Positions 8,693 through 16,722 of a stretch of 64,000 bases of DNA are shown one piece after another. This DNA is from a virus (taxonomy: Duplodnaviria; Heunggongvirae; Uroviricota; Caudoviricetes): IMG/VR virus record IMGVR_UViG_3300046359_000179, positions 11,944-75,943 of that record; one strand, given 5' to 3'. Within the stretch, counting starts at the first letter, position 1, and each line of letters begins with the position of its first letter. The translations under genes were made by a program, and so were the position numbers. Under the pieces are notes generated by a model. That model saw only the letters and a list, made by a program, of their open reading frames with translations. It searched no databases and was not told the origin of the DNA.

Positions 8693-9040
8693 TCACCCAC
8701 TTGTAAAGCGCATCGTATAATTTTTTCGACTTTCAACTAATCCCGAAGTTTTATCAACGGCGATTAAAATGAAATCCGGCCCTAGTTCCTGAAGTTTTGG
8801 GACAGCAGCATTTAACACTGCCCCAATTAGTTTGGCAGCAGGAATTTCTCCACCTGTAGCCTTATTGGTGCCATTTACAGCAAACCCAAAATCTATAAGA
8901 TGTTTTGATTCTACATCGTATTCATCAATTTGTACATGACAAAGTTTGCCATCAATGATAAATTCCCCGATGTGCCTATGCCCAACATTTTCCCATTTGA
9001 CTATTGGTTTAGTGTTTAGAATTTCAAGCAAATTCATCAA
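8693..9040 (-). CDS. hypothetical protein, paralog family C (homolog of ORF 46422..46844); 3' end possibly frameshifted
   Basis: M.L.EIL..K.P...G...I.G...D pattern shared with the 46422..46844 product; downstream open frame continues past its stop. Confidence 0.45.
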   Translation of the reverse strand: MMNLLEILNTKPIVKWENVGHRHIGEFIIDGKLCHVQIDEYDVESKHLIDFGFAVNGTNKATGGEIPAAKLIGAVLNAAVPKLQELGPDFILIAVDKTSGLVESRKNYTMRFTSG

Positions 9041-9612
9041 AGTAGATTTTCAATTGAATTAATCATAGGCAGCGCGATATGTTGCTTTCTAACTTTACAT
9101 TTATCCCACGTGTATTTGGTTCCACCGTCTTTTGGGATGTCCCCTCTGCCAAAGGTATACGCAAGCATAAAATCACATCCTGCTGCAACTTTATCATTTC
9201 TTCCAAACATTCCGGAATAACCGTTAGATTTTGGCTCGTATGTAACGAACTGTTTTGAATCTATGACTTCTGCTATTTGTCGGAGCGAATCATACCCTAT
9301 TATTTGGCTGAACTTTTCATGGTAAAAATTGCATGCCCTAGAGGTCTTATTGTAAGCTGCATCGCTAAAACGTTTTGTCTGAAGACAGAAAGGTGCAGGT
9401 AAATGTAAAATTATATCCTTACATTTTCCTGTCAAAAACAATTCGACAGCTAAATGATCTGCCCATGCAGCTCCACCAGAAATCACCGTATCATCTTCAC
9501 GAACATCTGAAGAAACATCCCGAATCATCCAGCGCCATAATTCTTTAGACATCGGAATCAATTTATCCCTTCCAGCAGTTCCTATAATAGCAATTTTCAT
9601 CTCTACTCCCAA
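9037..9612 (-). CDS. SLOG/DprA-like Rossmann protein (phage DUF2493-like)
   Basis: IAIIGTAGRD ... ISGGAAWADHLAV glycine-rich pattern. Confidence 0.4.
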   Translation of the reverse strand: MGVEMKIAIIGTAGRDKLIPMSKELWRWMIRDVSSDVREDDTVISGGAAWADHLAVELFLTGKCKDIILHLPAPFCLQTKRFSDAAYNKTSRACNFYHEKFSQIIGYDSLRQIAEVIDSKQFVTYEPKSNGYSGMFGRNDKVAAGCDFMLAYTFGRGDIPKDGGTKYTWDKCKVRKQHIALPMINSIENLL

Positions 9613-9618
9613 AGCTGC

Positions 9619-10170
9619 TTAATCTTCATGCAACGCAAAGACATAATCATGAAGACCGTTAATCTTTTTACAAATTGACTGACTTTCAACAATTAAAGCT
9701 TTCTCATAATTATTGTAAAGCTCAACTGGAACAATGTCAGTTATTTCATGCGTTTTTAAATCAATCATTTTTACAGGCCACTGATCGCGCAATTTGTCCC
9801 ATAGCCCGATTGTTTCTCTCGACTGTTCAACGTCTGAAATCAAGGCGAAGTTTAGAGTGTTGTATATAAACCGATATAGGTTTACTATAATTCCTCTCCT
9901 CCTATAGTTTGGGGAACACCATGAGCGCTTGACCATTAGTACTGACTTGTTTGAAGGCAGGTTTAAATCATCTATTGTTGTTAAAAGTAGCGCTGCAATT
10001 ATGCTATCATCCTTTTTCACGATGAAAACTTTAATATCCCCAGATGATCCAAGTTCAATTGTATAATCTTGGAGATAGTCGAGGCACACGATTTTAAAAT
10101 TAGTAATTTTGTTTAAGTCAAATCCCAAATTAGGTTGACTTACAACTCGTGCAATCTCAGATAATTTCAT
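9619..10170 (-). CDS. hypothetical protein, divergent paralog of family A
   Basis: RRRGIIVNLYRFIYNTLNFALISDVEQSRETIGLWDKL aligns with the family-A C-terminal block. Confidence 0.5.
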   Translation of the reverse strand: MKLSEIARVVSQPNLGFDLNKITNFKIVCLDYLQDYTIELGSSGDIKVFIVKKDDSIIAALLLTTIDDLNLPSNKSVLMVKRSWCSPNYRRRGIIVNLYRFIYNTLNFALISDVEQSRETIGLWDKLRDQWPVKMIDLKTHEITDIVPVELYNNYEKALIVESQSICKKINGLHDYVFALHED

Positions 10171-10379
10171 AATTAGAAATTTTAAAATGGGATAAATTCA
10201 CCGACATTCAATCCGACCAGACTAAAATACGGAACAAGCTTGCCAAACCGTATCAGCCCAGTAAGTTGCCAAGCTTATTCAACGGTCTCTGCGCAATCTA
10301 TGGTAGTTATTTTTCCGTTACGTAATTTCCGCTTTTTGACTCACTTGAATTTTTTGCATTTCAAACCTTTAAAAATTGA

Positions 10380-10493
10380 ACTATTTTGATGTAAGCACTA
10401 ATAACGTTGTCGCTTCATTGTGCTGGGAAATATCTTTCCAAATTTGGTCATCATCGAGATTTTCAGCATTATAATTACGCGGTTCTATAAAAA
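10380..10493 (-). pseudogene. C-terminal remnant of the family-A gene disrupted by the IS (..NYNAENLDDDQIWKDISQHNEATTLLVLTSK*)
   Basis: Matches the C-terminus of ORF 6459..7064 (..YNGENIDEFFIWNNSEHKKEPTSLLVLTSQ*); no start; overlaps the tnpB stop. Confidence 0.6.
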
Positions 10494-10500
10494 TCTATAA
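10380..10500 (-). ncRNA. predicted TnpB omegaRNA (reRNA) region: scaffold overlapping the tnpB 3' end plus flank-derived guide
   Basis: Placement inferred from established IS200/605/607 TnpB biology; 300-bp non-coding stretch downstream of tnpB; not folded. Confidence 0.3.
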
Positions 10501-11710
10501 AACTCACTAAACGCTTCACAGAAGCTGCCTTTGGAAGAACTTCCTTAGGTCTTACTGCCCCTCCACGTCTGTACTCGGTTAATTCAGCCGAGGTCATGTC
10601 ATAAAGGTCCTTTACACCTTCATTTAAAATATTGATAGCCGCATTTAAGTCGCGATCATGGCTTGAGCCGCATATTGGGCATGTCCATTCTCTTATGGAT
10701 AAATCCATCGTTTCCATTTTATGGCCGCAGCAAGAACACGTCTTACTCGATGGGAACCAAGTATCTATCTTATGAAATGTGCGGCCATACCACCTACTTT
10801 TGTATTCCAGCATTGAAATAAAAGTGGACCAACTTGCATCAAGTATGGATTTTGCCAAACTATGATTCTTAACCATGTTTTTAACTTTTAGAGTTTCAGT
10901 ACAAATAACATCGTAATTTTCTATTAACCAACTCGACAGGTTATGGTAAATGAACTTGCGCTGATTTACAATATCCCTATGGATTTTCGCAACTTTGATT
11001 TTCTGTTTATTGTACCTTTTAGAACCCTTTGTTTTTCTGCTTAAATGCTGCTGTGACCGTTTTAGTTTAGATTGGTTTTCTCTGAACCATCTTGGATTGG
11101 AAATTTGCGTACCATCACTTAAGATGAGCAAGTTTTTCAATCCGAGATCAATACCGATTGAGCGACCAGTATTTTGTTTCAATTCTATTTCTTCTTCAAC
11201 TAAAATTGAAACAAAATATTGCCCACTTGGATTTTTAGAAATTGTGACAGATTTTGGTTTACCAGTAAAAGGTCTATCTATGATTACTTTTACTGGAGAC
11301 ATTTTTGGAAATTTAATAAAACCTGCTTTAATTTGTTCAAATTTTTCTAAATGCATTGAAGCCGCAGGAATCCTAAATGATTCATTGCCACCCCGCTTTT
11401 TAAATTTTGGTCTTCCCAGTTTAGCTTTACGGTTTTTAGAGAAAAATTGCTTTTTGGTTTCATCAAAATCGATTCGTTTTTGCTGCAAGGCATAACTAAT
11501 AGCATCTTTAAGCCATGGAAAGTTCTCATCATCTTTCAAAATCTTCTCATTCATTGGTCGGTTTGGGCCTTCTTTTGAAAAAGAATTAAAATTGGCAACT
11601 AACTGATTCCAAATGAAGCGAACACATCCAAAATTTTGGAGAAGAAATTTCTCTTGCTTATTATTAGGATATATTCGGTACTTAAAAGCCTTAAGAACTG
11701 TATTTGTCAT
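10475..11710 (-). CDS. tnpB: TnpB (OrfB_IS605, RuvC-like RNA-guided nuclease with C-terminal Zn ribbon)
   Basis: N-terminal KYRIYPNNKQ..FGCVRFIWNQ; RuvC motifs IGIDLGLKNL and ICTETLKVKNM; CSCCGH..CPICG zinc ribbon; ..DRDLNAAINI. Confidence 0.85.
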   Translation of the reverse strand: MTNTVLKAFKYRIYPNNKQEKFLLQNFGCVRFIWNQLVANFNSFSKEGPNRPMNEKILKDDENFPWLKDAISYALQQKRIDFDETKKQFFSKNRKAKLGRPKFKKRGGNESFRIPAASMHLEKFEQIKAGFIKFPKMSPVKVIIDRPFTGKPKSVTISKNPSGQYFVSILVEEEIELKQNTGRSIGIDLGLKNLLILSDGTQISNPRWFRENQSKLKRSQQHLSRKTKGSKRYNKQKIKVAKIHRDIVNQRKFIYHNLSSWLIENYDVICTETLKVKNMVKNHSLAKSILDASWSTFISMLEYKSRWYGRTFHKIDTWFPSSKTCSCCGHKMETMDLSIREWTCPICGSSHDRDLNAAINILNEGVKDLYDMTSAELTEYRRGGAVRPKEVLPKAASVKRLVSFIDFYRTA

Positions 11711-12303
11711 TTTTCTGAATCGTTAGCTAATTCTTGAACCAATTTTTCCGTATTCCGTTTGCTGCGGCGCTGTCCATAAATTCTTGCGCAAAAAGATGTA
11801 ATGACGGACACAAAATCCTGAACAATGTCTTCTTTATCTGACTCTACATTATTCACTACATCGATTTCAATGCCATTAGAATTTAATAGCTGTTCAATAT
11901 AATTGAAACCGAATCTAGTCAGCCGATCCTTATGTTCAACTACTAATTTAGTAAAATCCTGTTCCTTAAGAAGCTTTTCCAGTTTTGGCCTCTTATCATT
12001 TAGTCCAGATCCAAATTCTGTAACGACTTTAGCAACTTTGTAACCTCTAGCGTTACAATATGAAATCAACCTTTCGGATTGAGTCTCAAGATTAGATTTA
12101 TTTGCAGTCGAAGAAACACGACAATAAATCACTACGCGTTCTTCTTCCTTGGCCTTTATACCAAGGAATTTGTTGTAAGTTTCAATATCAACATAATTCA
12201 TTGAACCAATTTTATGAAATTGTATTTTTCCAGCCTTCTTCCAATTCCACAGCGTCATCCTGGTTACACCAAGATCTGCAGCAAATTTTTTAAGTTTAAT
12301 CAT
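11707..12303 (-). CDS. tnpA: IS607-type TnpA (serine recombinase with N-terminal MerR-like HTH)
   Basis: HTH FAADLGVTRMTLWNW; resolvase core VVIYCRVSS..NLETQ; 4-nt overlap with tnpB. Confidence 0.8.
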   Translation of the reverse strand: MIKLKKFAADLGVTRMTLWNWKKAGKIQFHKIGSMNYVDIETYNKFLGIKAKEEERVVIYCRVSSTANKSNLETQSERLISYCNARGYKVAKVVTEFGSGLNDKRPKLEKLLKEQDFTKLVVEHKDRLTRFGFNYIEQLLNSNGIEIDVVNNVESDKEDIVQDFVSVITSFCARIYGQRRSKRNTEKLVQELANDSEK

Positions 12304-12340
12304 TTGATTTCCTATATAAGATATATTATATTTATACTTT

Positions 12341-12348
12341 TATTTATA
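12341..12348 (-). promoter_or_regulatory. TATAAATA late-promoter-like motif at the IS left end, upstream of tnpA
   Basis: Exact octamer on the minus strand ~38 nt upstream of the tnpA ATG. Confidence 0.3.
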
Positions 12349-12359
12349 GGAATTGAGAT

Positions 12360-12833
12360 TTAAATATAATATTGGGTAAAATCTGAAACAATAGTAAATC
12401 CGTATCGCGCCAAAACTACGTAAAGCGCCATTGCTAATCCCTGGGTTTGAAACTTTGCGTGAGTATAAACAGATTCAACTTGCAGCTCATTTTCTACTGG
12501 AAGGTTTGAACGGTTATTAAAACGCACTTTAGTTATAGTTAATTGACGAGGTTGGCCAATATCGTCTACGCCTGAAGTAGTAACTTCGGCATAAAATTTA
12601 CCCTTATTTAGCCAAAAATGGTATTCAGTTCCACCTTTTTCAAGGGTTCCCAAAAAATCATTCATACGACGCAAATTTTCAAGAGATGGATAATTGTCCA
12701 TCTTGATAATGGGCCTCGCATCTTGGTCCATATGATATGGGCCCTCAAAAAGTTCTTGGGTTTTCATGTCAATTTTTATTTTAGGTCTTGATTTAACTGC
12801 CAGTGCGTCGGTTTCCCAACGACAGTTTAGCAA
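12360..12833 (-). pseudogene. family-A gene truncated by the IS607 insertion (ends ..IVSDFTQ + YYI* from the IS end)
   Basis: Aligns to ORF 6459..7064 up to DFEQ; missing C-terminus is found at 10380..10493. Confidence 0.65.
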
Positions 12834-12879
12834 ACTGCTCCCTTAACCAACTTAACCACTCGTGCAAAAATCCATTTTT

Positions 12880-12960
12880 TTGGTGCCGCTTATCTGACTC
12901 GAACAGGCGGCACCTATTGCTTACACGGCACGTACTCTTCTAACTGAGCCAAAGCAGCAA
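12880..12960 (-). ncRNA. degenerate tRNA-like / minihelix element ending in CCA
   Basis: GGTGCCGC...GCGGCACC-A with T-loop-like TTCGAGT; no acceptable anticodon arm. Confidence 0.25.
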
Positions 12961-12967
12961 TAACTGG

Positions 12968-13040
12968 CTCCCTAGCGTGGGATCGAACCACGGACAACTT
13001 GATTAACAGTCAAGCGCTCTACCGACTGAGCTACTAGAGA
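12968..13040 (-). tRNA. tRNA-Asn (anticodon GTT)
   Basis: Acceptor TCTCTAG/CTAGGGA, D-arm GCTC-AGTCGGTA-GAGC, anticodon stem CTTGA/TCAAG, loop CTGTTAA, T-arm CGTGG-TTCGATC-CCACG. Confidence 0.8.
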
Positions 13041-13048
13041 ATAAATTT

Positions 13049-13126
13049 TGGTTGCGGATGCTGGATTCGAACCAGCGACCTCTTGATTATGAGCCAAGTG
13101 AGATAACCATGCTTCTCTAATCCGCA
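13049..13126 (-). tRNA. tRNA-Met or Ile2 (anticodon CAT), CCA encoded
   Basis: Acceptor TGCGGAT/ATCCGCA, D-stem GAGA/TCTC, anticodon stem CTTGG/TCAAG, loop CTCATAA, T-arm GCTGG-TTCGAAT-CCAGC. Confidence 0.75.
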
Positions 13127-13139
13127 ACAAATTTAAAAT

Positions 13140-13214
13140 TGGCGTCCCTACCTGGAATCGAACCAGGTCCTGCAGCGTGAAAGGCTATCGATCTAACCAG
13201 TAATCTATAGGGAC
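13140..13214 (-). tRNA. tRNA-Glu (anticodon TTC), CCA encoded
   Basis: Acceptor GTCCCTA/TAGGGAC-G-CCA, D-stem GATT/GATC, loop CTTTCAC, T-arm CCTGG-TTCGATT-CCAGG; resembles E. coli tRNA-Glu layout. Confidence 0.75.
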
Positions 13215-13301
13215 AAAAACTTTAGTCATAGAATTTAAAATCCTTCGAACTAAGTTTTAACGTAATGCGCATTACGCAAAATTTCGTATGCAGTGAATAT
13301 C

Positions 13302-13309
13302 TATTTATA
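13302..13309 (-). promoter_or_regulatory. TATAAATA late-promoter-like motif upstream of the second tRNA cluster
   Basis: Exact octamer on minus strand. Confidence 0.3.
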
Positions 13310-13338
13310 GTGCCCACAGCAAATGCTCTTCAATAATT

Positions 13339-13758
13339 TTATAATTCTTCAAATAAATTTTCGAATTCACCAGAGATGCAAATTACATCATTTGACTCGG
13401 AAATTTCCCCAGTTAGTCTGCTTCTTAAAGCGGTTTTAAGTGCTCTAGGATCACTCAACTGTCGAAATTCGAATTGCACTTTGAGGTGCCGGAATGCAGT
13501 ATTTATTGCACGGAAAACAAAATCATGCACGTTAAGCATATGGTCTATTGAGACGACATTTGCCGTGCTGAATGAATACAATGGAACTCCTCCGCAAAGA
13601 CGGTGTTCGTCTTTTAGGACCCTAAAAGTTATTTCAGGATCTTCTGAACTCATTTCCACTAAATGCGATAGAAACGTACTAAGCTTAAGTGGCTCAATGT
13701 ATTCGCGCCTTGGCAAAGATGACCAAGCATAAACTTCATAGCACGTTTCTTTTCGCAT
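13339..13758 (-). CDS. hypothetical protein
   Basis: 139-aa ORF. Confidence 0.45.
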   Translation of the reverse strand: MRKETCYEVYAWSSLPRREYIEPLKLSTFLSHLVEMSSEDPEITFRVLKDEHRLCGGVPLYSFSTANVVSIDHMLNVHDFVFRAINTAFRHLKVQFEFRQLSDPRALKTALRSRLTGEISESNDVICISGEFENLFEEL

Positions 13759-13773
13759 CTGTCAACCCTAAAA

Positions 13774-14079
13774 TTATGCTAGCGCAATACCGGTAGTTTG
13801 TTCAAGATACTGGCGAGTGACTTCAGCGTCAGTATCCACAACACACATGACAAATGTTGCTGGAATATCTACTTCACGCAAAGTTGGGTTTGAAAGCGTC
13901 CAAGGCATAAATGCCAACCCCATTTGCCCCGAATTTCCAAATGGGCGAAATTGTAATGTTTGTGGTTTACTAACCCGATACGCAGCAACATTACTGTCAA
14001 GAGTTGCAGAAATTTTAGAAACAAGCGTAGCAACAACTTCTTCACCAGACACCAACTTCAAAGTAACTACATTAGACAT
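13774..14079 (-). CDS. hypothetical protein
   Basis: 101-aa ORF. Confidence 0.45.
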   Translation of the reverse strand: MSNVVTLKLVSGEEVVATLVSKISATLDSNVAAYRVSKPQTLQFRPFGNSGQMGLAFMPWTLSNPTLREVDIPATFVMCVVDTDAEVTRQYLEQTTGIALA

Positions 14080-14159
14080 AAACTATGATCTCCAAAAGGT
14101 TAAAAATAAGACTTGAGCAAGTCAATGTTATTATACCATGTTTATCTGAAGATGTAAAC

Positions 14160-14444
14160 TTATTGTTTTGGGCGGCGAACACGTTTTGTCTGTAGAGCCT
14201 TTTTAAAAATTGACTTAACATCGGGAACAAACTTTGCTGCAACAAGAGCGTCTATATGAGTCTGATTAATAAAAATTTGTCGATGTGGCAGAATGAGCCC
14301 AAGATTTGTTCGAACGAAGTCGCGAACGAGTAATGTGTCAACTTTACCAAATTGATCTGAGTGGCAATAAAAGATGAACAATAAGTTGAGTTCAAGTTCT
14401 GAGTAGTTGGGCAAGATTGATCCTTCACTGTTTAACGTACACAC
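14160..14444 (-). CDS. hypothetical protein
   Basis: 94-aa ORF. Confidence 0.4.
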   Translation of the reverse strand: MCTLNSEGSILPNYSELELNLLFIFYCHSDQFGKVDTLLVRDFVRTNLGLILPHRQIFINQTHIDALVAAKFVPDVKSIFKKALQTKRVRRPKQ

Positions 14445-14502
14445 TTACTATTAGTGTGAAGAACTTTTTAAATTCCATTTGGTATTTATCGAGTGCACAA
14501 AA

Positions 14503-14530
14503 CAAAAAAGCGGACATTTGTCCGCTTTCG
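14503..14530 (-). terminator. rho-independent terminator
   Basis: Hairpin GCGGACA-tt-TGTCCGC with TTTTTTGTTTT on the minus strand. Confidence 0.6.
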
Positions 14531-14550
14531 TTCTTATTAGGTTTATGTGC

Positions 14551-14886
14551 TTAACTAATCTTTTTTGGCTTCAAATCGTTTATTCCAATGCTTTCAAGAA
14601 CTTCAGCAATCCCAAGTGCAAGTTGATCTATAGGGGATTCCTTATGCTCGCCTTCATCATTCATTAGCTCGCGAATATTGTACTCGTTGATAATACCATG
14701 TAAAACTTCATGAAGCACTAGACGTAATTCGCGCTCGGGGCTAGTCTTCAAAACCCTAATCGAGTGCTGCAAATAACTTATCTGTCCCCACAATTTTTGA
14801 CCGCTGCCATCATGGCAAACATCTAGTTCGCCTTTAACGGTTTTAATCTTATACGGAATGCCGCCAATCTTTATTTCTGTTCGCAT
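14551..14886 (-). CDS. small putative zinc metallopeptidase (HExxH)
   Basis: LVLHEVLHGI motif in 111-aa ORF. Confidence 0.4.
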   Translation of the reverse strand: MRTEIKIGGIPYKIKTVKGELDVCHDGSGQKLWGQISYLQHSIRVLKTSPERELRLVLHEVLHGIINEYNIRELMNDEGEHKESPIDQLALGIAEVLESIGINDLKPKKIS

Positions 14887-14903
14887 AATTTCTCAGTAAA
14901 TTT

Positions 14904-15623
14904 TTAATCGTCTGATGACCAAATTGAAGTGCTAATTTTCTTCGTGCTAAAGTCTATTTCAACACTGACGCCTTTTGTATGGCCCCACTTATCGTCTACT
15001 GCCGATGTAGTAAAAGAAGAAACTACGTAACCAGTTTCAAGCGAATGTTTCACAAATGGCGTAAAACTTTGAACTGTAACCCCCAGCATAATAAAACCAT
15101 TATCTTTAAACCAATCAAACGCTGCTTGGTTTTTATCAGCCGCATTTTTGATAATCTTTGGAAGTTGGTCCATTGCGTCCTTAGCAATTTCTGGCATATT
15201 CGAACGCAATTCTTCTTGAATCTGTTTAACAATGCCACTTTTGTATTCCAAATGCATATCTAGAATCGTTTTGTTAAGTCGCTTCAGGCCATCGCTATTG
15301 TCAAAATCTGAAACAGCAAAATAAATCGCTGACTTCACTTTAGGGCTGGAACCCTTTAGCATATAACCAAGAACCTTCTTATTATCTTTCTCAATCGACA
15401 CCCGTTTTAGATTGCCAATCGCGACTGTATTTAAACTGGCAACCACTGGAACTTCATGTTCGATACCATCATTGCACTTGACCATAACGGTTTGGTCTGA
15501 GATTTTCAGGCCCATTTTTACCGCATTTTGTATAGGGTAATTAAACAGCTCACGAGTGCTTGAAGCCTTCATTCGCATTTCGCCTGTTGAAATATGAAAT
15601 TCTGGGGTGTCTTGAATGTTCAT
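14904..15623 (-). CDS. hypothetical protein
   Basis: 239-aa ORF. Confidence 0.5.
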   Translation of the reverse strand: MNIQDTPEFHISTGEMRMKASSTRELFNYPIQNAVKMGLKISDQTVMVKCNDGIEHEVPVVASLNTVAIGNLKRVSIEKDNKKVLGYMLKGSSPKVKSAIYFAVSDFDNSDGLKRLNKTILDMHLEYKSGIVKQIQEELRSNMPEIAKDAMDQLPKIIKNAADKNQAAFDWFKDNGFIMLGVTVQSFTPFVKHSLETGYVVSSFTTSAVDDKWGHTKGVSVEIDFSTKKISTSIWSSDD

Positions 15624-15626
15624 CTT

Positions 15627-16370
15627 TTAATCCAAACTAATAGTTAATGCCTTACATGATGCACCAAATTTTAAAAATTCAGATACATCAAGCGTAAGGA
15701 TATTATACCCTAGTTCTTTGAGCTTTCTTGACAACGCTTTAGAAAATTTAGAACCTATAATACTTTGGCCGACACAGATAGAATTGCAGACTAAGCCTAG
15801 AGCATCTTCACGTGAAATAGCTATCAATTTATCATCGAACATTTGTTCAAGCACATATTTCGAATGGTTCGAAAATGCCGCAGGAAAATAAAGAGCGTGA
15901 CCATCAGAAAGTATGCATAAACATGTATCTAGCGTTGAGAACACCGGATCTGCAAGTTCAAGAGGGCGAACTAATAAATCAGTCGATTCTAAAATTTTAT
16001 CCAACGCAAACTTGCCATCTAGCAAAGTCTCGTATCCAAATCCCAAGAATAAATTATCCCCGTCGATAATGACGTCTCTTCCAGAGAAGGCTGCGTGTTC
16101 TTTCCCAATAATTGCAAACGAACGAAATTTTGGTTCTGCCCATTCTAAAAAGTTGCATTCAGAACTGGAAATAAAAGTGTCGCCGATAATGATTCCCGCA
16201 TCAGCGCAAATAGAAGACTGCACAGGAACACTTGGCACAATAACATCTACCCCAACAGAGATAAGAGCATTACGTAAATTGGCCCACTGTTTTGCCTGTA
16301 AAGTCCTGGTCATTGCCATTTCTTTCGGCGCATCATTTGTTGGAGTAAACATTAAAAACTGCTTTGTCAT
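15627..16370 (-). CDS. pentein-fold enzyme (DDAH / arginine deiminase / amidinotransferase superfamily-like)
   Basis: C-terminal FGASCKALT (GGxxC nucleophile-like) and an internal SDGHALYFPAAFS His region. Confidence 0.35.
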   Translation of the reverse strand: MTKQFLMFTPTNDAPKEMAMTRTLQAKQWANLRNALISVGVDVIVPSVPVQSSICADAGIIIGDTFISSSECNFLEWAEPKFRSFAIIGKEHAAFSGRDVIIDGDNLFLGFGYETLLDGKFALDKILESTDLLVRPLELADPVFSTLDTCLCILSDGHALYFPAAFSNHSKYVLEQMFDDKLIAISREDALGLVCNSICVGQSIIGSKFSKALSRKLKELGYNILTLDVSEFLKFGASCKALTISLD

Positions 16371-16409
16371 TTATTTCCTTAGGTTTCTATTTGTCCTATT
16401 GTGGAAGTC

Positions 16410-16437
16410 ATAAAAGCTCACTTAAAAGTGAGCTTTT
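16410..16437. terminator. hairpin terminator
   Basis: AAAAGCTCACT-taaa-AGTGAGCTTTT. Confidence 0.5.
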
Positions 16438-16722
16438 GAATTATGCGCCTAAAATATGTTTTTCAAATTTAGCCGCAAGAGCAGAAATCTGAGCATCCCT
16501 AACAGATGAACCTGTATCTGGTGCATAAGCTAATTCAGCTTTCCAAACATCTATTGCAAGTGCGATAGAGATAATTTTTACTTCTTCTAAAGAAGGAATT
16601 TTCCCGCTAATTGTGAAATTTGATGAAATCAATTTTGTCCCCTAAGAAAAATGCAGTAACAGAAAATACCGTTACTGCATTATAAACTTTAATTAAATTG
16701 TTGTAAACTTATTTGCAGCCAG

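Follow-up and report, generated by a model that had tools for sequence, protein, structure and literature searches.

A probably intact IS607-type insertion sequence carrying tnpA and tnpB interrupts a GNAT-like paralog gene of a large jumbo-like phage

Introduction

When a transposase gene and a tnpB gene are found inside a phage gene, the question arises whether they make up a mobile element or an old, immobile insertion whose genes the phage has kept. We examined one such locus in a 64,000-nucleotide stretch of DNA (hereafter the window), which comprises positions 11,944 to 75,943 of the Caudoviricetes virus record IMGVR_UViG_3300046359_000179. An original prediction, made from the letters of the sequence, had placed an IS607-family element consisting of tnpA and tnpB, inserted into a phage paralog gene, at 10380-12833. 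The contents of that interval proved to be as described, but the element proper covers 10471..12371 only. The best full explanation of the data, in which we have considerable confidence, is that 10471..12371 is an intact autonomous IS607-family insertion sequence that was inserted into a GNAT-like paralog gene.

Results

The element and its ends

The product of tnpA matched the NCBIfam equivalog NF033518 'IS607 family transposase' over residues 5-183 with 200.9 bits (cut-off 110), and the Pfam Resolvase domain covered residues 57-189. Together with the N-terminal helix-turn-helix (HTH) and the YCRVSS motif (Table 1), these matches bear out the claim of a MerR-HTH serine recombinase; since the two fragments of a phage gene flank the element (see below), the placing of an IS607-family tnpA-tnpB pair within a paralog gene was also correct. 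TnpB contained the HTH_OrfB_IS605, OrfB_IS605 (PF01385) and Cas12f1-like TNB (PF07282) domains and matched the NCBIfam guided_TnpB model with 331 bits (cut-off 100). Its best natural matches in the PDB were the ISDra2 TnpB entries 8H1J and 8BF8 (E=1e-76, residues 7-367), and 9YYG, an RNA-guided nuclease designed by artificial intelligence, scored slightly above them (E=7e-85). The catalytic motifs D188 (GIDLG), E272 (CTETLK) and D354 (HDRDLNAAINI) correspond to D191, E278 and D361 of ISDra2 TnpB, and the zinc ribbon cysteines (C325/C328/C344/C347) align as well. The description of a 411-aa TnpB with a complete RuvC D/E/D set and zinc ribbon was thus accurate, and the failure of the RuvC motifs to align, which the prediction had named as a possible refutation, was not what we found. 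Judging from ratios of nonsynonymous to synonymous substitution rates (dN/dS) of 0.06-0.13 for tnpB and ~0.05 for tnpA (the latter versus the copy in contig L020), the element copies are under strong purifying selection. No open reading frame (ORF) for a Y1 TnpA was present in or beside the element, in which the serine recombinase is the sole transposase, and tblastn detected no further copy of tnpA or tnpB in the window.

A megablast search of 50,697 phage records with 9600..13400 returned no close relative, and isolate genomes therefore could not define the ends of the element. The comparison with related phages that had been proposed for this purpose succeeded with metagenomic copies, which fixed the limits at 10471..12371. 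In nucleotide blast comparisons with the copies in L020 (92% identity), L122 (86%), and L017/L018 and L019 (78%), similarity reached as far as 12371-12373 at the left end and 10471 at the right end, and the flanks were unrelated among all of these copies, including that of the window; alignments of the ends set the left boundary at 12371. By inspection, L120 carries the same end sequences. The consensus of the element start is TAT(T/A/C)(A/G)T.. and that of the terminus is ..TAATTAT. The TnpB relatives with 85-93% identity, all of them in metagenomic phage contigs (L020, L017/L018, L019, L120 and L122), are each accompanied by a tnpA, giving with the window six tnpA-tnpB contexts that have unrelated flanks. 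These six represent the same element at different sites, one of them a nested copy (L019) and another a copy in a related phage in the opposite orientation (L122). More distant relatives with 62-70% identity (L117b, L118, L119, L121, L037 and L038) are solo tnpB genes; their right-end terminus is also TAATTAT except in L038 (TAATTAA), and L119 retains the left end as well (TATTATATTTAAAT).

TAT was found at both element ends in every copy, and target duplication was absent. In IS607 itself, both ends and the target contain a GG core (PMC6188088), and a core that the element ends share with the target, but that is not duplicated, is characteristic of serine transposition in the IS607 family (PMC6188088; PMC4058570). 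In the left end, the core CTATAAATA.AA.TATA.AT was kept in the 78%-identical copies, and its TATAAA repeats constitute a putative binding site for TnpA. The inverse of this motif occurs at element positions 1871 and 1881, with just one further copy in the 1901 bp; it was likewise kept in the 78%-identical copies, and the right-end TTTATA(G) motifs make up the terminal hairpin of the predicted RNA described below. We considered misassembly as a source of the arrangement and rejected it, the same junctions being present in the independent metagenome assemblies L013, L014 and L123.

Table 1. Coordinates and properties of the insertion, its parts and the interrupted gene in the window.
Feature	Position	Strand	Properties
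Probable complete IS607-type insertion sequence	10471..12371	-	1901 bp; begins TATTATATTTAAATC, ends CGCGTAATTAT
Left-end TAT	12369..12371	-	Common to target; candidate 2-bp serine-recombinase crossover site
Left end	12304..12371	-	68 nt, non-coding, 5' of tnpA; TATAAA at element positions 24 and 36 (12 nt apart)
tnpA, IS607-family serine transposase	11707..12303	-	198 aa; N-terminal HTH, YCRVSS catalytic serine motif
tnpB, RNA-guided nuclease homolog	10475..11710	-	411 aa; 4-nt overlap with tnpA
Predicted omega RNA scaffold	10471..10650	-	Nearly all in tnpB 3' coding region, last 4 nt past the stop; ends ..GCGUAAUUAU
Right end	10471..10501	-	Two TTTATA(G) motifs 10 nt apart, inverse of left-end motif, then CCGCGTAATTAT
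Predicted 16-nt guide/target	10455..10470	-	AATGCTGAAAATCTCG; immediately outside right end
5' fragment of interrupted GNAT-like paralog	12372..12767	-	MKTQELFEG..SDFTQ; frame extends into the element for 4 codons (Y Y I stop, to 12360)
3' fragment of the same gene	10381..10470	-	NAENLDDDQIWKDISQHNEATTLLVLTSK, stop; aligns with the C-terminal ends of P0002-P0011 and the two window paralogs

The interrupted gene and its 41-codon gap

The 5' fragment was 77% identical to the full-length ortholog P0002 (204 aa) and 47-48% identical to the window paralog at 6459..7064. The truncation at ..DFTQ of a gene originally placed at 12360..12833 was correct, but the gene does not begin with the TTG at 12833, which is a spurious start; it begins with the ATG at 12767, where the homologs open with MK.QELFEG. 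Directly past the tnpB stop, 10473..10381 encodes YNAENLDDDQIWKDISQHNEATTLLVLTSK-stop (YNAENLDD..LVLTSK), and this is the C-terminal remnant that had been recognized there, apart from a leading 'N' that belongs to element sequence. Twelve full-length members of the family were available for comparison, ten of them database homologs (198-222 aa) and two of them window paralogs (6459..7064 and 2288..2926), and relative to all twelve the interrupted gene lacks 41 codons, which makes exact the estimate of about 40 deleted codons. In P0002, the closest ortholog, the residues between the two pieces are NGGKALWKKMAKESSARQFVVRIWDDELEDWVKDELGGIIK (NGGKALWKK..GGIIK), and the gap has as its edges CAG-TAT-AAT-GGC and AAA-TAC-AAT-GCA, two similar target-like sites. 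Removal of the element with retention of one TAT yields an in-frame ORF, ..SDFTQYNAENLDD.. (..GAT TTT ACC CAA TAT AAT GCT GAA AAT.., or ..DFTQYNAEN..), the length of which falls short of that of the ortholog by exactly 123 bp (41 codons). The ortholog is uninterrupted (204 aa) in L015/L016, and L016 is partly syntenic with the window, the next gene but one being homologous to window 9037..9612 (75% identity); hence there is a related phage that lacks the insertion. The interrupted phage gene is dispensable.

Because the edges of the gap coincide with the two junctions of the element and no homolog has the gap alone, the loss of the 41 codons is best attributed to the element. A different order of events would be that replication slippage between two ATATAATG repeats made the gap first and that the element was later inserted, by chance, at the joint. 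A short direct repeat (TAT/TAC-AAT-G) does flank the gap in the ortholog, the gap is exactly in frame, and 8-bp repeats commonly give rise to deletions by slippage; however, the gap without the element was seen in none of the ten full-length database homologs and in neither of the window paralogs. Moreover, an AT-rich phage genome offers thousands of R-TAT sites, so that it would take a remarkable coincidence for a later, independent insertion to hit the very joint unless TATAAT were strongly preferred, and the other seven contexts exhibited no such preference, the right-end TAT being followed in them by TTG, TGA, TCA, CAT, CAC, GTC and CCC. We therefore regard prior slippage with a chance hit at the joint as improbable, and as much less likely than the routes in which the element takes part.

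The sense orientation of the element within a coding sequence, and the fact that IS607-type IStrons with TnpB are known (PMC10690162), would be in keeping with an IStron carrying a group I intron. We consider this highly improbable: an Rfam search of 9500..13500 (E<=1) gave no group I intron match, the 68 nt between the left end and tnpA are far too short for a ribozyme, and precise removal would still leave a protein without 41 conserved residues.

A predicted omega RNA, its guide and the target motif

Among the 78%-identical copies, conservation of the last ~100 nt before the right end far exceeded that of the entire element. From nine copies aligned with MAFFT we obtained a consensus structure of 45 base pairs with compensatory changes in seven of them, and a covariance model built from this alignment identified a single site in the window (10471..10650) as well as more distant copies elsewhere. 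In a 15-sequence alignment fitted to the model, compensatory changes were present in 27 of the 45 pairs, and 94.9% of paired cells were occupied by pairing bases compared with 36-44% when the partners were slid; none of 500 shuffles reached the observed values. Conservation stopped exactly at TAATTAT in 11 copies, the twelfth, L038, ending with TAATTAA. These results are what would be expected for an omega RNA, that is, a conserved covarying structure that ends at the right end, and they agree with the prediction of such an RNA at the tnpB 3' end.

The characterized right-end element RNA (reRNA) of ISDra2 consists of a ~150-nt scaffold derived from the tnpB 3' end and the right end, followed by a 16-nt guide derived from the flank (PMC8612924). 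Assigned by position according to this layout, the guide would be AAUGCUGAAAAUCUCG (10470..10455); with up to 3 mismatches allowed, no second match occurs in the window, the paralogs included. The earlier suggestion that the phage DNA bordering the right end would supply the guide is supported.

A purine preceded the left TAT in all eight contexts, the base before it was usually A, and the right end reads TTAT. In a characterized IS607-family element, TGGG is both the TnpA target and the target-adjacent motif (TAM) of TnpB, and the right end reads TCGG, which avoids self-cleavage; the TAMs of IS607 elements are G-rich, whereas those of IS605 elements are TA-rich (PMC10690162). A target of R-TAT as opposed to a right end of TTAT is consistent with the same logic, with a TA-type motif in place of the G-rich one, and R-TAT is accordingly our predicted TAM.

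Strain comparison and evidence for mobility

The element looks intact and recently mobile. L123 belongs to the same strain as the window and was identical to it over 7.1 kb except for a 21-bp deletion in the tail of tnpA. The missing bases (window 11712..11732) make up seven codons, in frame, at the tnpA 3' end just before the tnpB start; the loss is a polymorphism inside the element within one strain. L013 and L014 represent another strain and differed from the window at 24 and 18 positions, respectively, none of which lies in the 1901-bp element. All of these differences fall outside 10113..12441, a 2.3-kb tract centred on the element, which consists of the element with ~70 bp of its left and ~358 bp of its right flank; the remaining 1.6 kb differs by ~1.5%. 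The right-hand differences between the strains are packed into 9852..10112. From the strain differences we calculated that the chance of such an identical tract under a uniform rate is ~1e-7. An identical element between flanks that have diverged by ~1.5% suggests recent spread, and would fit either a recent sweep or homing with co-conversion.

Several observations weigh against this interpretation and against parts of the description given above. The tract free of single-nucleotide polymorphisms (SNPs) could come from ordinary recombination or from assembly collapse of a multi-copy element. A cluster look-up of the 5' fragment revealed no empty-site allele, the gene copy being truncated in all 14 contigs that carry it; the insertion at this site may for that reason be fixed, and its current mobility there is unproven. 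The proposed R-TAT motif rests on eight contexts only. TnpB scored slightly under the cut-off of the NCBIfam IS200/IS605-TnpB model (405.8 versus 425 bits) and far under that of the IS607-TnpB model (174.9 versus 350 bits); because the former model outscores the latter, the element looks like an IS605-clade TnpB travelling with a serine transposase. With respect to the RNA, the covariation count from 15 sequences leans towards the model to which their alignment was fitted, and coding constraint explains part of the conservation in the scaffold stretch. The fold of the single sequence was no more stable than that of shuffled controls (z = -1.24), and since folding of one sequence was thus uninformative, comparative analysis was needed. 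An Rfam search (E<=1) gave no matching omega RNA family, only tRNAs reaching threshold; matches to mir-208, YrlA and Plastid-ycf2 were dismissed as lying far under their thresholds. Of the folding check that had been suggested for the tnpB 3' end, therefore, the comparative structure held up, whereas the single-sequence fold and the Rfam search lent it no support.

The foregoing look-up, with the insertion present in every contig that has this gene copy and the empty site not seen, could also be read as the mark of a fixed relic or a domesticated gene pair, in which case the insertion would be old and immobile and its genes kept, if at all, for the benefit of the phage. Solo tnpB relatives with a decayed tnpA in other phages, such as that in L118, show that elements of this kind do become immobile. 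Here, however, neither the ORFs nor the ends are damaged, dN/dS values fall far short of 1, copies with 86-93% identity occupy different sites in related phages (L020 and L122), and the identity of the element in strains with ~1.5% flank difference argues for recent arrival or spread. To our knowledge, the domesticated TnpB derivatives described so far are typically nuclease-dead, in contrast to the TnpB of this element, in which D/E/D is intact. The original prediction had stated that a fixed, long-domesticated pair would count against it; related elements occupy at least six sites, and the pair is therefore not a fixed domesticated one, while the gene is uninterrupted in L016. Taken together, these data make a relic unlikely and favour an intact insertion sequence.

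The related copies provided further observations on how such elements are arranged. In L019:3049-6203, a 78%-identical copy is nested inside another, different tnpB, which lies on the opposite strand in halves of 214 aa and 189 aa and thus forms the flank of that copy. In L118:5760-6000, which precedes a solo tnpB (68% identical), nothing of the upstream part survives but the left end and the HTH-coding N-terminal stub of tnpA; L118 appears to be an intermediate in the decay of an IS607-type element to a stand-alone tnpB, and its stub shows how the solo-tnpB copies arise. The 86%-identical copy in L122:148-5800 resides in the same neighbourhood as window 13348..16612 (~70% nucleotide identity), at a different site and in the opposite orientation, without the family-A gene (the family to which the interrupted paralog belongs) or the tRNAs in between; the region around it appears to be a hotspot of plasticity. 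Finally, a 288-kb phage contig (L117:1506-2744 and 6001-7314) carries two different tnpB genes within 5 kb, one of this lineage (69% identical) and the other with an unrelated C-terminus and 3' region.

Phage context and distribution

The window encodes ribonucleotide reductase, ligase, helicase, a UvsX-like recombinase, tail proteins and six tRNAs, and the genes around the element are all on the minus strand. The UvsX-like protein is nearest to those of the jumbo phages RsoM2USA (56%) and the PA5oct group (36%), and relatives of the element are found in contigs of 288-292 kb; on these grounds we rejected the initial reading of the genome as T4-like. The accompanying remark that insertion sequences are uncommon in such phages overstates their rarity, since TnpB-like genes were present in 404 and IS607-type TnpA in 55 of the 50,697 phage records, and both IS607 in viruses and the frequency of TnpB in phages are already in the literature (PMC10690162; PMC12607003). 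Scans of IMG/VR with the gene fragment and with TnpB returned distant matches only (<=46% full-length identity). In bacterial genomes, an exact-peptide-pattern scan, which was not exhaustive, found no relative above 46% over the full-length protein and short partial matches of 55-58%; the lack of a close bacterial copy means that there is no clue to the host. All close copies (62-93% TnpB identity) are in phage-like metagenomic contigs.

For the function of family A, Pfam and PHROGs gave sub-threshold hints of a GNAT acetyltransferase only. The window has three GNAT-like paralogs (2288..2926, 6459..7064 and 12372..12767), of a family whose function is only hinted at, and a tRNA cluster is situated a short way upstream of both the second (7646..7834) and the third (12965..13214). 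A weak GNAT match (E=0.0034) was also obtained for the neighbouring gene at 9619..10170. Between the 3' gene fragment and the next gene, the 210 nt at 10171..10380 contain no minus-strand ORF of at least 40 aa; a 49-aa plus-strand ORF (10240..10389) overlaps this interval. Just upstream of the interrupted gene, a tRNA-like sequence at 12884..12958 (minus strand) ends with ..CACCA and adjoins a tRNA-Asn/Met/Glu cluster. It scored 28.2 bits against an Rfam tRNA gathering score of 29, was not called by ARAGORN, and has strain SNPs at 12950 and 12910; it may be a degenerate or unusual tRNA.

Discussion

The model that we infer, which extends from the chemistry of transposition through the expression, guide and target motif of the RNA to cleavage, homing and the route of the deletion, is as follows. 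As in other members of the family, TnpA would excise the element as a double-stranded circle and insert it, without duplication, at a short core common to both ends and the target, the core lying within TAT and being preceded by a purine. The expected circle junction would read ..ACCGCGTAATTATTATATTTAAATC.. (..CGTAAT-TAT-TATATTT..) and the expected donor joint GATTTTACCCAATATAATGCTGAAAATCTC (ACCCAA-TAT-AATGCTG). Insertion in the sense orientation would have inactivated one of three GNAT-like paralogs of a large jumbo-like phage, with the left junction at the first TAT-AAT-G site (between ..Q-Y and N-G-G..) and the right junction at the second, 123 bp downstream (between ..K-Y and N-A-E-N..); given junctions at two separate sites of this type, the 41 intervening codons would have been lost in an event associated with the element. 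By the simplest route to the deletion, the element would have entered both sites and its two copies would then have recombined with each other; alternatively, TnpA may have recombined the right end with the second site. TnpB would bind an RNA composed of the last ~180 nt of its own mRNA and ~16 nt of flanking phage sequence, and the complex would cut phage genomes that have the empty site (R-TAT followed by a match to the guide). The cut genome would then acquire the element by recombination with one that bears it, much as a homing endonuclease would act during co-infection by a recombination-proficient phage.

A broader proposal, which we advance tentatively and consider possible rather than probable, is that the element belongs to a phage-adapted hybrid lineage, in which an IS607 serine transposase has been combined with an IS605-clade TnpB and R-TAT serves as target and TAM, and which spreads by RNA-guided homing among co-infecting jumbo-like phages. 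Its inheritance would be super-Mendelian, and it might exclude competitors that are free of the element. The SNP-free tract would then be the footprint of co-conversion, and the 123-bp loss a side effect of the transposase or nuclease acting at two target-like sites close to each other.

The locus does not constitute a new type of system, as TnpB, omega RNA, the mechanics of IS607 and the presence of such elements in phages are all established. Its value lies rather in offering a natural case for TnpB-driven transposon homing between phages, with base-exact ends, many contexts, an uninterrupted ortholog, an in-frame deletion linked to the element, and a pair of strains that share an identical tract centred on it. 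In addition, this TnpB is compact (411 aa), its scaffold is defined and its target motif is predicted to be TA-rich, which makes it a candidate for testing as an editor.

In its organization the element resembles the IS607 family, as represented by IS607 of Helicobacter pylori, IS1535 and the CboIStron. Its TnpA belongs to the small serine recombinases that begin with an HTH, tnpB lies downstream of tnpA and overlaps it, terminal inverted repeats and target duplication are absent, an identical short core is present at both ends, short subterminal repeats that may bind TnpA lie at unequal distances from the two ends, and the right-end terminus is one upstream base off the predicted target motif. 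It differs in that the core is TA-type (TAT) and not GG or TGGG, that TnpB is nearer to the IS200/IS605 type than to the NCBIfam IS607-TnpB model, and that there is no intron. TnpB itself is similar to that of ISDra2, an IS200/IS605 element of Deinococcus radiodurans, in size (411 compared with 408 aa) and in its D/E/D and zinc ribbon, and the predicted guide RNA would likewise take its scaffold from the tnpB 3' end and right end and its guide from the flank. Unlike ISDra2, the partner is a serine recombinase and not a Y1 HUH TnpA, so that the intermediate, by analogy with the family, would be double-stranded; the right end lies just 4 nt past the tnpB stop, so that nearly the whole scaffold is coding; and the predicted target motif is R-TAT, not TTGAT. 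IS607-type elements with TnpA(Ser), with or without TnpB, have been annotated in Thermus phage TMA, Clostridium phage c-st (ISCbt4), Campylobacter phage CP21, Staphylococcus Kayvirus, and Nodularia and Microcystis phages, and the element shares this gene content; their carriers are large, mostly virulent tailed phages. The present lineage is set apart from them by a best TnpA identity of 48.7% (TMA) and a best TnpB identity of ~45%, and it is absent from the isolate-phage collection. Finally, the element may be likened to the homing endonuclease genes of T-even and other large phages, in that it is predicted to cut the element-free allele in co-infection, repair of which would copy the element and nearby flank; the tract 10113..12441 has the appearance of co-conversion, homing itself being predicted here. 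In contrast to those genes, it would be guided by RNA and reprogram itself at each new insertion, and it carries a transposase of its own.

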